Of a DNA stretch of 64,000 nt, positions 43,335-63,533 are shown piece after piece (positions within the stretch are counted from its first letter, which is position 1; each line of letters starts with the position of its first letter). The position numbers and the translations under genes are program-made. The stretch is from a virus. Location: the IMG/VR virus record IMGVR_UViG_3300015360_000025. One strand, given 5' to 3'. The notes under the pieces are model-generated. The model was not told the DNA's origin, did not search any database, and saw nothing but the letters and a program-made list of their open reading frames with translations.

Positions 43335-44243
43335 ATGTTACCGAGACCAGATAAAATAGAAGACACGATTCTTGTGACTCACATGGGGTGTATGGATGGA
43401 TCGGGGGCGATGATTATGTTCGTCCGGGCTGGTGGTAAAAAGGAAAATGTCCACTTCGTTGCCGCCGGGATGCTTGAAAGGTTCATCAAGAACGATCTCG
43501 ACGGCTTCAAGGGCAAGTTCGTCATCTTCGCAGACATCGGTCTCGCTGGTGACAAGGGATCAAAATACGCAGATATTCTTGAGAAGCGCGGGAACTGTGT
43601 CCTGATTGATCATCATGTTACCTCTACTCACATGAAGGGCAAAGAGTGGTGCGACATTAGAATGGAGTCGTGCGGTACTGAGCTCCTCCGTCAATACTTG
43701 AAGCTTGAAGACGAGAGTTCGAAGGCCATGGCCGCGCTCATCCAGGATCACGACCTCTGGCTCCGGAATGACCCACGGTCGGTCGACCTGGCCGCCTTCA
43801 CCGTGTTCGTTGGGCAGGACATATTCGTCGAGAGGTTCATGGATCGGGACGTGACGAAGGAGTTCTTCACTCCTCTTGAGACGGAGATGATGGCGATCAT
43901 GATCCGGCGACGAGACCAGTTCATCGCCGCAGCAATCAGAAAGGTGATCGTGAAGGATGTCATCTGGGGAGATACGGATGAGAAGCTTGCCAAGGTCGGA
44001 TACATTATCTCTCCAGAGATGAATGTCTCCCTTCTCCTTGACACACTCCTGATCGAGAAACCAGAGCTTGACATCGGATGTCAGATCAACTTCGAGAAGG
44101 GGTCGGTTAGTCTGCGATCTAATCGCGGGTACGATGTGTCCGAGTTCGCTGAATACTACGGCGGTGGTGGTCACAAGGCAGCGTCGGGTCACAAAATCGC
44201 AGATGAGATCATGAAAGGAATATTCGAGGAAATCCATGGCTGA
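43335..44243 (+). CDS. DHH/DHHA1 phosphoesterase (oligoribonuclease-like)
   Basis: TH..C.DG, DIG, IDHH, SLRS, GGGGH..ASG. Confidence 0.88.
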   Translation: MLPRPDKIEDTILVTHMGCMDGSGAMIMFVRAGGKKENVHFVAAGMLERFIKNDLDGFKGKFVIFADIGLAGDKGSKYADILEKRGNCVLIDHHVTSTHMKGKEWCDIRMESCGTELLRQYLKLEDESSKAMAALIQDHDLWLRNDPRSVDLAAFTVFVGQDIFVERFMDRDVTKEFFTPLETEMMAIMIRRRDQFIAAAIRKVIVKDVIWGDTDEKLAKVGYIISPEMNVSLLLDTLLIEKPELDIGCQINFEKGSVSLRSNRGYDVSEFAEYYGGGGHKAASGHKIADEIMKGIFEEIHG

Positions 44244-45198
44244 GCATTGCATTGTTGGTAACAACTTCGATGACATCTATCGAGACCTGCTTCACGATCT
44301 CTCCTGGTCCCCGCAGTACATTTGCAGTCCTAGGGGGCAGAAGATAAATGAGAACCTTGCTGTCACTCTTGTTCTGAATGATCCCAGGGCCCGCCTTCTC
44401 AGTTGTCAGAAGAGGAACACAAACTACGGGTTCGCGGTCGGCGAGTTCCTCTGGTACTGGAACGGGAAGCAGGACCTCGAGACGATGCTGTACTACAACA
44501 AGAGGATGAAGGACTACTCTGACGATGGAAAGACCCTCAACTCAGCTTATGGGTTCAGACTCAAGGGGAGATTTGTTGGAGACGGATGTCCTTACATGAG
44601 CCAATGGGATGTGGCAAAAAAGACACTTCTTAGTGATTCTGATTCACGGAGATGTGTACTTCACATCAATGAACCCGAAGACCAGCATGATGCCGTTTCC
44701 GAAGGATCGAAGGATGTCCCATGTACCCTCTCCCTCCAGTTCTTCATTCGTAACAATCGACTCGACCTTCATGTGCATATGCGATCCAATGACGTGATGT
44801 GGGGACTGACCTACGATCTCTTCAGCTTCACTCTCTTTCAGGAATGCATGATGCTTGAACTTCGGAAGGAAGAGAAGTTCAAAGACTTGCAGCTTGGAAG
44901 GTATTATCACACCGCTGGTTCTCTCCATGTCTACGAACAACACTTTCAGCAGGCGATGGACATTGTCAACGAGTATGCCACCTCCATCGTCTACAAGATG
45001 CCAATGGAACCGTTCGAAAGCCTCGAGGACTTCGATAGATTAGGTGACATTGAACAAGCATTGAGGACTGGACTGAGTACGAAGATCGTCTCGAACAACC
45101 TCATAGCTGGATTGTGTGAATCTGCTGAGTGGATGGGAGACAAACTTCTTGATCATCGTGAAAAACGTGACAAGGAAGCTTTGAAGAAGATTGAGTAA
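44236..45198 (+). CDS. thymidylate synthase homologue, dCMP hydroxymethylase-type
   Basis: PCT catalytic Cys, MRSND, and GLTYD with Asp where ThyA has the dUMP-specifying Asn. YH.AGSLHVY. Confidence 0.85.
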   Translation: MAEHCIVGNNFDDIYRDLLHDLSWSPQYICSPRGQKINENLAVTLVLNDPRARLLSCQKRNTNYGFAVGEFLWYWNGKQDLETMLYYNKRMKDYSDDGKTLNSAYGFRLKGRFVGDGCPYMSQWDVAKKTLLSDSDSRRCVLHINEPEDQHDAVSEGSKDVPCTLSLQFFIRNNRLDLHVHMRSNDVMWGLTYDLFSFTLFQECMMLELRKEEKFKDLQLGRYYHTAGSLHVYEQHFQQAMDIVNEYATSIVYKMPMEPFESLEDFDRLGDIEQALRTGLSTKIVSNNLIAGLCESAEWMGDKLLDHREKRDKEALKKIE

Positions 45199-45205
45199 TT
45201 AGCCC

Positions 45206-45421
45206 ATGGGTAAGAGACGGGTCTGTTACGTCGTTCACTGGTCTGACGCGACGGGATGTCCAGAGAGTAGAATATACCCAAAGCTTGGGATTGGGCTAGT
45301 CAAGTTTATCTCAGATATCGGGAAGCAGCAGACTGGCGAACCGGTCGTTGAGCGGATCGTCCTATCCGATCTGACCAAAGAAGAAAAACGAAAGCTAAAG
45401 GAGATACAAGATGGCCAATGA
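45206..45421 (+). CDS. hypothetical protein
   Basis: 71-aa ORF, operonic. Confidence 0.5.
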   Translation: MGKRRVCYVVHWSDATGCPESRIYPKLGIGLVKFISDIGKQQTGEPVVERIVLSDLTKEEKRKLKEIQDGQ

Positions 45422-45794
45422 ATTTCTTGAAACTGAGTTCCGCTGTCGGTGTCTAAAAGTCGTCGATGGAGACACGGTCGACCTTTGCGTCGACATTGGT
45501 TTCCACGTCTCTTTCACCGGTCGCTTCCGTGTTCTCGGGATTGACACGGCTGAGATGAATTCCAAGGATGTCACAGAAAGGGCCGTGGCACTACTGGCCA
45601 AGGACAAGGTAACAGAGTTACTCAAACCATCTCCGACGACCACTGGCTGGCCTCTGATGGTGCGGACAAAGAAGGACCCCGACAGCTTTGGTAGGTGGTT
45701 GGCTGACATCAGTTACTTTCTTCTAGACGGAACGAAGTTGGGCCTCGGCCCGATGCTGATCCTCGAAAGACTGGCGAAACCTTACAAGGGGTGA
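45411..45794 (+). CDS. thermonuclease (SNase-like)
   Basis: KVVDGDT.D, R.R..GIDT.E, D.FGR.LA. Confidence 0.88.
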   Translation: MANEFLETEFRCRCLKVVDGDTVDLCVDIGFHVSFTGRFRVLGIDTAEMNSKDVTERAVALLAKDKVTELLKPSPTTTGWPLMVRTKKDPDSFGRWLADISYFLLDGTKLGLGPMLILERLAKPYKG

Positions 45795-62045: not shown

Positions 62046-62446
62046 GTGAAGAGAATCAGTTGGAACCACTGTCACCTTTGGCGCAGACACTTCTTGAAGG
62101 AATCCTCAAGAAGGATGATATATCATTGACGTCATTGACCGGTGATTCTGAGTTCGACGCGATGTTCAGAGACTGCATCTCTACGATGTCGACCAAAGGG
62201 AAAGAGTACACAGGTGGATCACCTGACCGGCTCAATAACTTTCGGGTTGCCGGCGAAGATGTCGGATTGCCAATGGAGAAGGTGTGGTACGTCTTCTTCA
62301 ACAAGCACCTGCGAGCCATCCAGTCGTACATCAAGAACGGCTGCAAGGTTCAGTCCAACGAGACGATTCATAGCCGTATCATGGATTGCATCGTCTACCT
62401 CTTTCTTTTCCACAAGATGGCGCTGGAGATCGAGCGTTCGAGGTAA
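62042..62446 (+). CDS. nucleotide-modification-associated (DUF1599-like) helical protein
   Basis: KG.EY......L.NF......G......W.....KH...I.......E.I..RI.D.I.YL. Confidence 0.6.
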   Translation: MSEENQLEPLSPLAQTLLEGILKKDDISLTSLTGDSEFDAMFRDCISTMSTKGKEYTGGSPDRLNNFRVAGEDVGLPMEKVWYVFFNKHLRAIQSYIKNGCKVQSNETIHSRIMDCIVYLFLFHKMALEIERSR

Positions 62447-62451
62447 CAGAA

Positions 62452-62970
62452 ATGAGCAAGCAGATCCGGCAGAACTACTGGGACACGTGCAGAGCCGAAG
62501 GTCAGCGAGTCATGGATCGATTCGGCATCGCACCTCCTCGTTGCGGATTTGGAATCGGCCTAGGTTGGATCGCTTCCGTCGAACGGGCCTTCGAGAAAAT
62601 GGTCGCTGCTGGATGGAACAAGGACCTGCACCAAGTCAAGCAGAAATTTTGCGGTCTCCGCATCTACATCGGATTCGGTGGACAGGACGATGTGGATAAC
62701 TTCCTGAAGAAGATTGTCCGGAAGGCCGTGCACAAGCTTGCATGCCAACAGTTGTTTCACAAGAAAATCAGACATCTTCTGTTCGATCTGCGAGACTCCA
62801 ATCTACTTCGTCAATGGCGTCCCAATCGCATCGCGAAGGCCGTAGCAGAAGCTGAAGAGGAGTGCTGGAACATCTGCGAAGTATGCGGGAAAGAACGAGA
62901 GAAGAAGGGACAACGATCAGGATGGGCCCTCTGCAATGCCTGTGATCAAGACAACGGGAAGACATTTTGA
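62452..62970 (+). CDS. hypothetical protein
   Basis: G.GW, QVKQKF.GLRIY and C-terminal C..CG...C..C motifs typical of a widespread phage family. Start ATG 62452. Confidence 0.65.
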   Translation: MSKQIRQNYWDTCRAEGQRVMDRFGIAPPRCGFGIGLGWIASVERAFEKMVAAGWNKDLHQVKQKFCGLRIYIGFGGQDDVDNFLKKIVRKAVHKLACQQLFHKKIRHLLFDLRDSNLLRQWRPNRIAKAVAEAEEECWNICEVCGKEREKKGQRSGWALCNACDQDNGKTF

Positions 62971-63533
62971 GACTTTTACTTGACCAAGACCAGGTGATCT
63001 GCAAGTGGGTCGAGCGGATCCTTGAGTGGTACAATGAGGACTACAAGACAAACTTCACCAGAGAAGATGTGAAGGACTACTGGGCGATGGAGACGATCTT
63101 AGGTGTCCAGGGGAAACCTTACCTCCGCGCTTGCATGAGGTACCCCGAGCTATACAGAGACCTGGATGCCGTAGAGGGGGCCATCGACGGGGTGAAGTCC
63201 CTCATTGACCGGGGACACGACGTGGTCATCGCTACCGCGATTCCGTCCTGCGCTGGTATCGGCTATCACGGAAAACTAGAGTGGATACGAAGGAATATGC
63301 CCTTCTTCAATGTGAAGAACTTCGTCTCCATCCAGCGAAAGGACATCTTGAACGGCGACCTACTTCTGGACGACGGGCCGCACAACATCGCCGCCTGGAA
63401 CAAGACCAACCGGACGTCAGTCGTCTTCGATTGTCCATGGAACCAGGACGTCAAGGCTACCCATCGGGTGAAGAATTGGGGCGAATTTATCTCTCTTGTT
63501 GACCGACTCTCAGTCGAAGGAAAAGATATTTAG
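62967..63533 (+). CDS. 5'(3')-deoxyribonucleotidase (HAD, NT5C-like)
   Basis: LDQDQV (DxD), GA.DG...L, K.EW......F, K..L.GD.L.DDG..N, F..PWN. Confidence 0.88.
   Translation: MRLLLDQDQVICKWVERILEWYNEDYKTNFTREDVKDYWAMETILGVQGKPYLRACMRYPELYRDLDAVEGAIDGVKSLIDRGHDVVIATAIPSCAGIGYHGKLEWIRRNMPFFNVKNFVSIQRKDILNGDLLLDDGPHNIAAWNKTNRTSVVFDCPWNQDVKATHRVKNWGEFISLVDRLSVEGKDI

Follow-up and report, generated by a model that had tools for sequence, protein, structure and literature searches.

A putative T4-style module for cytosine replacement and glycosylation with a predicted GT75 mutase in an uncultured phage

Gene content of the locus

We analysed a stretch of 64,000 nucleotides (hereafter, the window) from IMG/VR virus record IMGVR_UViG_3300015360_000025, which belongs to a 187 kb metagenomic contig of an uncultured T4-like phage. 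All window genes lie on the + strand, and the region from 44236 to 63533 holds a set of genes that a first-pass annotation had read as an apparently complete pathway of cytosine hypermodification, possibly by arabinofuranose. Cytosine glycosylation is one of the main ways in which phages evade restriction enzymes as well as CRISPR nucleases, and it is itself the target of type IV restriction and of glycosylase defences. The sugars known on phage cytosine are glucose on 5-hydroxymethylcytosine (5hmC), and D-arabinofuranose, galactose and glucose on 5-hydroxycytosine (5hoC). The genes at the centre of the present analysis are the following:

44236..45198, + strand: thymidylate-synthase (TS) homologue, predicted dCMP 5-hydroxymethylase of the T4 gp42 type (Pfam PF00303, PDB matches and active-site alignment)
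45798..46169, + strand: MazG-like all-alpha nucleoside triphosphate (NTP) pyrophosphohydrolase, candidate dCTPase (phrog_12184, Pfam dUTPase_2 and synteny)
52544..53641, + strand (open reading frame (ORF) from TTG 52526): GT75/RGP protein, predicted Mn2+-dependent mutase converting nucleoside diphosphate (NDP)-pyranose to NDP-furanose (Pfam RGP, MtdL residues)
53638..54819, + strand: TnsA-like endonuclease (N-terminal half) joined to a nucleotide kinase domain of YorR/dNK fold (about 54271-54819), candidate 5-hydroxymethyl-dCMP kinase (Pfam, PHROG and structure model)
55669..56778, + strand: GT-B glycosyltransferase, remote relative of T4 beta-glucosyltransferase (BGT), predicted 5hmC-DNA glycosyltransferase (model and profile alignment)
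57317..57760, + strand: dCMP deaminase, supplying dUMP and diverting dCMP (Pfam dCMP_cyt_deam_1, 2.1e-18)
60865..61812, + strand: ThyX flavin-dependent thymidylate synthase, a separate dTMP route (Pfam Thy1, 5.7e-24)

Gene identities, conserved residues and linkage are directly established below, and from these we infer all substrates and products.

A thymidylate-synthase homologue with the signature of dCMP hydroxymethylases

The TS homologue matches Pfam Thymidylat_synt (PF00303, 72.5 bits), and its closest PDB entries are the CMP 5-hydroxymethylase MilA (7.6e-36) and T4 dCMP hydroxymethylase (1.3e-13). We aligned it with E. coli ThyA, T4 gp42, RB69 gp48 and SPO1 gp29, taken from annotated records. 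In this alignment Cys163 corresponds to the catalytic cysteine (E. coli C146), the PCT and MRSND motifs are present, and the diagnostic residues keep the same spacing from the catalytic cysteine as in E. coli. The aspartate of GLTYD (Asp194, codon 44815) occupies the position of E. coli N177, +31 from the cysteine, and specifies cytosine; an aspartate is also found there in T4 gp42 and RB69 gp48, and an asparagine in SPO1 gp29. Both this aspartate and the T4-like C-T/MRSND residues had been pointed out earlier, and both were confirmed at their places in the gene.

Two further positions bear on the product of the reaction. In SKDVPC, an aspartate stands at -3 from the cysteine, the position of E. 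coli L143, as in hydroxymethylases, and an acidic residue in place of this leucine has been linked to water access and to a hydroxymethyl and not a methyl product (PMC13326640). The MRSND motif moreover keeps Asp169 and is identical to that of T4 gp42, as opposed to MRSQN in RB69 gp48, and all 5-hydroxy-dCMP synthases tested, RB69 gp48 included, carry Asn at 169 (Lee et al. 2026, PMC13326640). This D169N marker of the RB69 gp48/DLP3 gp80 type was found neither in the window TS homologue nor in those of its relatives, and the hydroxymethylase-type (hm-type) signature is kept in every partner TS of the related loci. Since Asp169 is kept and the tested 5-hydroxy-dCMP synthases all have Asn, 5-hydroxymethylcytosine is favoured over 5-hydroxycytosine, which narrows the choice that the first-pass annotation had left between the two.

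With regard to the sugar of the substrate nucleotide, a study of MilA assigned Lys133 and Ala176 to ribose-preferring enzymes, and Arg and Ser to deoxyribose-preferring ones (PMC5175136). The TS homologue reads DSRR and MRSND against DSKR and MRAND in MilA, and therefore has the deoxyribose-type Arg and Ser. Taken together, the aspartates at the L143, 169 and N177 positions and the deoxyribose-type Arg/Ser pair strongly suggest, at the level of sequence, that the product of 44236-45198 is 5-hydroxymethyl-dCMP.

A GT75 protein with the residues of an NDP-pyranose mutase

The protein encoded at 52544-53641 matches Pfam RGP (PF03214) with 130.7 bits (cut-off 23.8; 9.1e-38) over positions 4-338 of 342, in line with its earlier description as an RGP homologue. 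In the PDB it matches MtdL (5e-16), and the family profile matches 8cid, a plant UDP-arabinopyranose mutase chain (4e-26). The MtdL study assigns Mn2+ binding to DDD and His287, the role of glycosylated nucleophile to Arg159, that of general base to Asp260, and phosphate binding to Arg257 and Arg289 (PMC9937993). The equivalent DDD motif, PRG arginine, RFGD and H-x-R (MtdL D109-111, R159, R257/D260 and H287/R289) are invariant in 31 homologues of the window protein, which has every residue needed for NDP-pyranose mutase activity; this activity is predicted for it. As a group, the phage GT75 proteins form a large viral/metagenomic branch with about 30% identity or less to solved members.

Members of GT75 are known to act on UDP-L-arabinopyranose, GDP-L-galactopyranose and GDP-L-fucopyranose (PMC9937993). 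Our HMMER alignments to MtdL begin at residue 81, with the nucleotide-selectivity positions 13 and 42 outside the comparison, and within them all the phage proteins have a serine (RRSD) where MtdL has Ser86, as in users of GDP-sugars, whereas plant users of UDP-sugars have an aspartate. Changing MtdL to the plant residue (S86D) abolishes GDP binding (PMC9937993). The aspartate at MtdL Ser86 that marks class 1 RGPs, the plant-type UDP-L-arabinopyranose mutases, is thus missing in the phage proteins, and the label of a plant-type mutase given earlier is not supported at this position. The sugar-contacting MtdL residues Ser228/Gln229 are replaced by Gly-Met in the phage proteins and by Gly-Ile in the plant chain 8cid.

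A search of phage records (INPHARED) with the RGP sequence gave a sole match, in the 595 kb uncultured phage LR756511, with neither a TS nor a GT-B homologue in its neighbourhood. Full-text literature searches found no paper tying GT75, RGP or UDP-arabinopyranose mutase to phage DNA modification, and in the virus literature searched the only mentions of GT75 are CAZy labels in surveys of soil viromes; the remark that such a donor route is not known from described phages is consistent with this.

A GT-B glycosyltransferase remotely related to T4 BGT

The glycosyltransferase at 55669-56778 has no match in Pfam (E up to 0.01), PHROG, NCBIfam or the PDB sequences, and phmmer against the PDB returned chance-level matches only. 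Its homologues number more than 500, are metagenomic, and in many cases lie on contigs of 190-205 kb; one of them was tagged PF13524. A model built from 29 homologues has a GT-B fold (pLDDT 93.4), for which the top Foldseek match is the DNA-bound T4 alpha-glucosyltransferase, with BGT among the best as well, and the earlier comparison to T4 BGT is upheld to this extent. The fold superposes on BGT across its whole length, with about 14-16% identity in the structural alignment.

A profile alignment of the family with T4 BGT, at an hhalign probability of 50%, pairs the BGT motifs TDIRLPF, GGSFRSGQRE and FITLRVWE with VEWRFPI (Glu101), IGSRYERDD and FITPRPWE, respectively, all on invariant columns. 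We take the roles of these BGT segments to be catalytic base for Asp100 (in TDIRLPF), and UDP binding for Ser189/Arg191/Arg195 and Arg269/Glu272. Among the ESM Atlas neighbours of the protein are PF09198 T4-Gluco-transf clusters, which we regard as a lead only. Based on the model and the profile alignment, we read 55669-56778 as a probable remote relative of BGT, its membership in GT63 not being established.

Linkage of the module genes in other viral loci

A scan of IMG/VR with the RGP sequence returned nine loci, a scan with an RGP profile gave 55 RGP loci, and a GT-B profile scan then added more. In the nine loci (46-80% identity), genes for the TS homologue, MazG, a DnaE-type polymerase, a small ORF, RGP, the kinase, GT-B and the dCMP deaminase follow each other in this order. 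The order RGP-kinase-GT-B, with TS homologue, MazG and dCMP deaminase nearby, is present in loci L001-L009, L031, L032, L088 and L089, of which L088 and L089 came from the GT-B profile scan; the proteins of the conserved-order gene set are 31-62% identical between independent viral contigs. As independent viral contigs share the set and keep its gene order, the linkage of the module genes is far beyond chance, and the proposal that the TS homologue, MazG-like enzyme, kinase, BGT-like transferase and GT75 protein form one conserved module is borne out.

Outside the window's clade, the one exception among the RGP loci is an unrelated phage whose replication module is of PolA type (L049/L094), in which genes for deaminase, hm-type TS, MazG, P-loop kinase, RGP, a uracil-DNA glycosylase (UDG)-like protein and GT-B are contiguous; those of L049 lie within a 5 kb nucleotide-metabolism block beside PolA. 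The UDG-superfamily protein of this contig (L049 10947-11699) stands between RGP and GT, where the window's clade has the kinase.

Distant relatives of the GT-B occur in a similar context without RGP. The genes for kinase, GT-B and TS homologue immediately adjoin one another in L091 and L093, and in L090 and L092 (the latter a 300 kb contig) the GT-B gene lies near kinase and TS homologue. Since these distant relatives form kinase-GT-TS triplets without RGP, the core of the module is hydroxymethylcytosine synthase, kinase and BGT-like transferase, and RGP is an accessory present in a subset. The L090 contig (61 kb) carries at 8600-11140 two tandem BGT-like GT paralogues together with the kinase and hm-type TS, without RGP, which is possibly a two-sugar variant.

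In a quick RGP tree, the window clade is one supported group nested among viral RGPs of glycan context. Clusters of the latter type (L033-L076) also hold an SDR (short-chain dehydrogenase/reductase) dehydratase, FkbM methyltransferases and a B12-radical SAM enzyme, and some stand beside major capsid genes. The 96%-complete relative G001 has a single RGP gene, placed in the module between DnaE and dCMP deaminase and about 100 kb from a heptose/GT cluster. This cluster of about 20 kb (G001 20-40 kb; L014 1-20000) comprises several GT4 and CgeB-like glycosyltransferases, a GT9 heptosyltransferase, heptose kinase and epimerase, a GalE-like SDR and a UDP-glucose-dehydrogenase-like protein; a dTDP-glucose-dehydratase-like SDR of G001 lies outside it (L011; 98.9 kb).

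Partner enzymes of nucleotide metabolism

The MazG-like protein at 45798-46169 matches phrog_12184 (nucleotide pyrophosphohydrolase, 1.9e-13) and Pfam dUTPase_2 (PF08761) with 24.5 bits (cut-off 22.9), in agreement with its earlier naming. Its acidic metal motif EELGD is kept in relatives, and the gene lies beside the TS homologue in relatives and in L049. Its substrate is presumed to be dCTP.

The ORF 53638-54819 matches Pfam Tn7_TnsA-like_N (1.1e-9, residues 128-201) and phrog_761, a thymidylate kinase (1.3e-6). Its kinase domain carries a P-loop and a DR motif, and the model (pLDDT 83) matches in Foldseek a deoxyadenosine kinase (7.6e-6), YorR (TMt 0.7) and thymidylate kinases (TMPKs); similarity to RB69p045, the kinase of the RB69 cluster, is weak (24% identity, E 5e-7). 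The first-pass annotation had placed a dNMP kinase gene at 54271-54819, of which the domain stands by its P-loop, DR motif and model, and the start does not: 54271 is CAT, no start codon, within the C-terminal part of the longer ORF, and the closest in-frame starts are ATG 54190 and TTG 54223. The kinases of relatives are free-standing and start 8-12 residues ahead of the P-loop.

The dCMP deaminase and ThyX are both above the Pfam cut-offs, so that the separate dTMP route proposed earlier is retained. The deaminase gene is syntenic in most relatives and adjoins the TS homologue in L049 and L092; homologues of ThyX are 61% identical in L003-L006. Three further genes accompany the module:

52275..52535, + strand: small conserved ORF of 86 aa that immediately precedes the GT75 gene, no function assigned (homologues directly 5' of RGP in L001-L006 and L008; no Pfam match)
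56735..57124, + strand: ORF of 129 aa that follows the GT gene and is conserved in some relatives, no function assigned (homologues after the GT gene in L001 and L003-L006; no Pfam, PHROG or NCBIfam match)
62967..63533, + strand: NT5C-type 5'(3')-deoxyribonucleotidase-like HAD phosphatase, pathway role uncertain (Pfam NT5C, 2.6e-31)

The NT5C gene, named in the first-pass annotation together with a DUF1599-like gene, is above the Pfam cut-off and lies downstream of the module in L001, L007, L031, L032, L088 and L089; DUF1599, on the other hand, gave no match among the ORFs scanned in 43332-63866.

Proposed pathway and alternative explanations

Taken together, these results suggest that the region is a T4-style module for cytosine replacement and glycosylation with one new component, the GT75 mutase, and that the phage DNA carries furanosyl-5hmC, an interpretation that we consider somewhat probable. 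Its parts differ in strength. Glycosylated 5hmC in the phage DNA is likely, the odds that a furanose is supplied by the GT75 mutase appear even, and L-arabinofuranose specifically is an unlikely identity for the sugar, being one candidate among several. The wider proposal is put forward tentatively: 5-(furanosyl-oxymethyl)cytosine, a base not known before, would be made by a BGT-like GT from a GT75-made NDP-furanose in a widespread clade of uncultured T4-like phages with about 200 kb of DNA, and in at least one PolA phage unrelated to them.

According to this model, the MazG-like enzyme would remove dCTP, and the TS homologue would convert dCMP to 5-hydroxymethyl-dCMP, the step for which the sequence argues strongly. 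The YorR/dNK-fold kinase may then raise this product to the diphosphate and a host NDP kinase to the triphosphate, and the phage DnaE polymerase would incorporate the modified nucleotide, with dTMP made separately by way of ThyX and the dCMP deaminase. Once the DNA has been replicated, the BGT-like GT-B would transfer a sugar to the hydroxymethyl group of the DNA, probably by an inverting reaction with Glu101 as base, as the alignment with T4 BGT suggests. An NDP-pyranose made by host or phage would be converted by the GT75 protein to the NDP-furanose that serves as donor for the GT-B, so that the DNA would carry furanosyl-5-hydroxymethylcytosine. Candidate sugars are L-arabinofuranose, L-galacto- or L-fucofuranose, or another furanose. 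To call the pathway complete, as the first-pass annotation did, goes too far, since the window encodes neither a source of the NDP-pyranose nor the NDP kinase step.

Several results weigh against this model. The family Pfam PF09198 (GT63, T4 beta-glucosyltransferase) does not match the GT, GT4 enzymes match it as well as BGT does in structural scores, and the hhalign probability with BGT is only 50% (E 1.6e-4, 234 columns). A tblastn search of the INPHARED phage records with the GT found no homologue, and the cultured phages among them have no close RGP homologue. Within the window, we found no route that supplies a suitable NDP-pyranose, UDP-L-arabinopyranose included. No SDR epimerase was seen in the scanned ORFs of the window, of the relatives G002/G003 or of the L049 contig, and the GalE-like, dehydratase-like and UDP-glucose-dehydrogenase-like genes of G001 lie far from the module, none of them at equivalog cut-off. 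The earlier choice of arabinofuranose is weakened likewise, as GT75 enzymes also convert GDP-L-galactose and GDP-L-fucose, and the window showed no way of making UDP-L-arabinopyranose. Four GT-B loci are without RGP within 10 kb, and the transferase family therefore does not need RGP. About 40 viral GT75 loci, moreover, lie in clusters of glycan type, together with genes for GT2, GT4, methyltransferases and, in 13 loci, SDR epimerases. Some of these clusters adjoin capsid genes, and none has a TS homologue or a window-type GT-B within 10 kb. As most viral GT75 genes are in such clusters, the default role of the family in phages looks like glycan synthesis; GT75 appears to be common among phages and may there serve to glycosylate virions with furanoses. 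The relative G001 itself has a large glycan cluster, and L049 falls outside the window's clade in the quick RGP tree.

These results can be accommodated in other ways. Unlikely, in our estimation, is an arrangement in which the DNA contains 5hmC with an ordinary pyranose (e.g. from host UDP-glucose) as in T4, and in which GT75 is a GT-A transferase for a second sugar or a self-glycosylating donor or primer. The GT-A domain of GT75 with its DXD and the autoglycosylation of its arginine with several NDP-sugars (PMC9937993) would agree with such a role, as would the occurrence of the GT-B homologues of L090-L093 without RGP and the location of the second GT-B paralogue of L090 at the place where others have RGP, which fits a slot for a second sugar. 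No GT75 member, however, is known to transfer sugar to any acceptor but itself, and the mutase residues of the phage proteins (Arg nucleophile, Asp base and His/Asp metal site) are all invariant. We give a very small chance to the idea that the 5-position carries another group, the TS homologue forming 5-hydroxy-dCMP as in RB69, or 5-methyl-dCMP, with the sugar attached accordingly or absent. MilA is the top structural relative by sequence here, as it was reported to be for the 5hoC synthases of DLP3, RB69 and RL38JI, and D169N is an empirical marker, so that an Asp169 enzyme might hydroxylate as well; against this, Asp169 is kept as in T4 gp42 whereas RB69 gp48 and the tested 5hoC synthases have Asn, and the acidic residue at the E. 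coli L143 position speaks against a methyl product.

Equally improbable is a function in which GT75, and perhaps also the GT-B, glycosylates virion proteins or other glycans and is placed among replication genes by coincidence. The roughly 40 glycan-type GT75 loci, some of them by capsid genes, and the 20 kb heptose/GT cluster of G001 would be in keeping with it, yet the RGP and GT-B genes of G001 lie about 100 kb outside that cluster, between DnaE and dCMP deaminase. The GT-B family is also linked with TS homologue and nucleotide kinase across very different phages, and the L049 genes are located in a 5 kb block of nucleotide metabolism next to PolA.

If this model is true, it would be the first function of GT75 in viruses and in nucleic-acid modification. 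GT75, regarded as a plant/actinomycete family, is common in viral contigs, and the phage group is represented by hundreds of metagenomic proteins. The model also leads to a testable rule in which a core of kinase, BGT-like GT and hm-type TS is combined with an accessory GT75 or second GT that sets the sugar, and the enzymes could serve NDP-furanose synthesis and enzymatic labelling of 5hmC.

Comparison with described cytosine modification systems

The T-even phages, with T4 gp42, the gp56 dCTPase, the gp1 kinase and the alpha- and beta-glucosyltransferases, are similar to the window in several respects. The active-site signature of gp42 is the same as that of the window TS homologue, and an all-alpha NTP pyrophosphatase, a dCMP deaminase and a separate thymidylate synthase are found in the window as well. 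The window GT-B can be aligned to BGT, at 50% hhalign probability, with the presumed motifs for catalytic base and UDP binding conserved, b-gt adjoins gene 42 in T4 just as the GT gene lies beside the TS homologue in distant window relatives, and the virion module is T4-type (portal, gp23, gp13, sheath). In contrast to T4, the window GT falls below Pfam PF09198 with about 14-16% identity to BGT, the kinase is YorR/dNK-like and not gp1-like, the replicase is DnaE, ThyX is present instead of Td, and a GT75 mutase, which T-even phages do not have, is embedded in the module.

The arabinosyl-5-hydroxycytosine systems of RB69, DLP3, HY126 and their relatives (PMC13326640) share with the window a TS homologue, a TMPK-like kinase beside the first GT, a MazG-like dCTPase and GT-B enzymes. 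The kinase-GT1-TS unit known from RB69, DLP3 and RL38JI is mirrored by the kinase-GT-TS triplets of L091 and L093; the window kinase, like DLP3 gp78, best matches YorR, and the end product of the RB69 type is a furanosyl pentose on modified cytosine, similar to the one proposed here. The TS of this type, however, has D169N and forms 5hoC, whereas the window TS homologue keeps Asp169, and hhalign detected no relationship between the window GT family and RB69 gp47. In RB69-type phages, UDP-D-arabinofuranose is made from ribulose-5-phosphate via isomerase, kinase/pyrophosphorylase and phosphatase and attached to 5hoC (PMC13326640); none of these enzymes was seen among the scanned ORFs of 43332-63866. 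The analogy with RB69 drawn in the first-pass annotation is therefore a loose one, as donor enzymes and acceptor base differ.

Rhizobium phage RL38JI (Pootjesviridae), which has hexosylated 5hoC, is the only described case in which a phage pyranose/furanose mutase, here UDP-galactopyranose mutase, was proposed to feed a DNA-cytosine GT, and it also has a kinase-GT-TS unit. Its mutase is FAD-dependent (UGM/Glf) and unrelated to the metal-dependent GT75, its base is 5hoC (D169N), and a long distance separates its mutase gene from the GT/TS unit, in contrast to the adjacent mutase gene of the window. Phages that activate sugars to glycosylate cytosine, one of them with a mutase from a different family, have thus been described before, and GT75 is the new component; the module would add a third donor-forming chemistry, the GT75 mutase, and probably a new base. 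With plant RGPs and the actinomycete MtdL/Hyg20, the window protein shares the full-length Pfam RGP domain, DDD, the Arg nucleophile, the Arg/Asp pair and the His-x-Arg loop, and differs in its context, which is DNA modification instead of cell wall or antibiotic synthesis.

Other features of the phage

The window holds T4-type virion genes (tail sheath, tail tube, baseplate), and T4-type portal, prohead protease, gp23 capsid protein and gp13 genes lie directly upstream of it. The replication genes are unlike those of T4: the polymerase is of DnaE type, a fragment of a family A polymerase is also present, and with them occur DnaB, RecA and a ribonucleotide reductase that carries an intein. At the DNA level, megablast of 44236-57760 against 50,697 phage records gave no match, and the identity of the window DnaE to phage records does not exceed 33%.

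Two ORFs share the coding of DnaE: 47482-50388 holds the PHP, NTPase and finger domains, and 51157-52278 the HHH_6 domain. Between them lies an ORF (50193-51176) with weak DUF559/Vsr-like endonuclease similarity, whereas DnaE is one uninterrupted gene in relatives. Rfam at gathering thresholds found tRNAs only, and no intron was detected at the split DnaE. The large subunit of ribonucleotide reductase (40336-43056) contains an intein with an HNH endonuclease domain. Two TnsA-like endonuclease ORFs are present, one (53638-54270) fused in frame to the kinase and the other (57624-58064) overlapping the 3' end of the dCMP deaminase gene; as TnsA-like homologues are found at other positions in relatives, this suggests mobile elements of homing type. 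Between kinase and GT lies a NADAR-domain gene (54816-55271; 1.6e-33, with a weak match to an NCBIfam anti-phage NADAR model), which is missing from the kinase-GT site in all nine related loci and may act in counter-defence against DNA ADP-ribosylation.

The 1552-aa ORF 27234-31892, of which G001 has a shorter homologue, contains, at about residues 1035-1195, a domain resembling NMN adenylyltransferases, and it also has weak matches of kinase type. Its cytidylyltransferase-like domain was considered as a part of the pathway and was not counted, matching NMN adenylyltransferases and not sugar nucleotidyltransferases. The ORF 32898-33422 matches the Pfam ATLF zinc-metallopeptidase region (1.5e-8) and, weakly, M90, and is probably a generic zincin protease. 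In the tRNA region 13408-13811, ARAGORN calls two tRNA-Ile with anticodon AAU, and a third tRNA-like match at 13408-13483 comes from Rfam without an ARAGORN call. Finally, the protein encoded at 25645-26835 belongs to the tubulin/FtsZ family and ends in a domain similar to that of TubZ; the phage that carries it measures about 187 kb.

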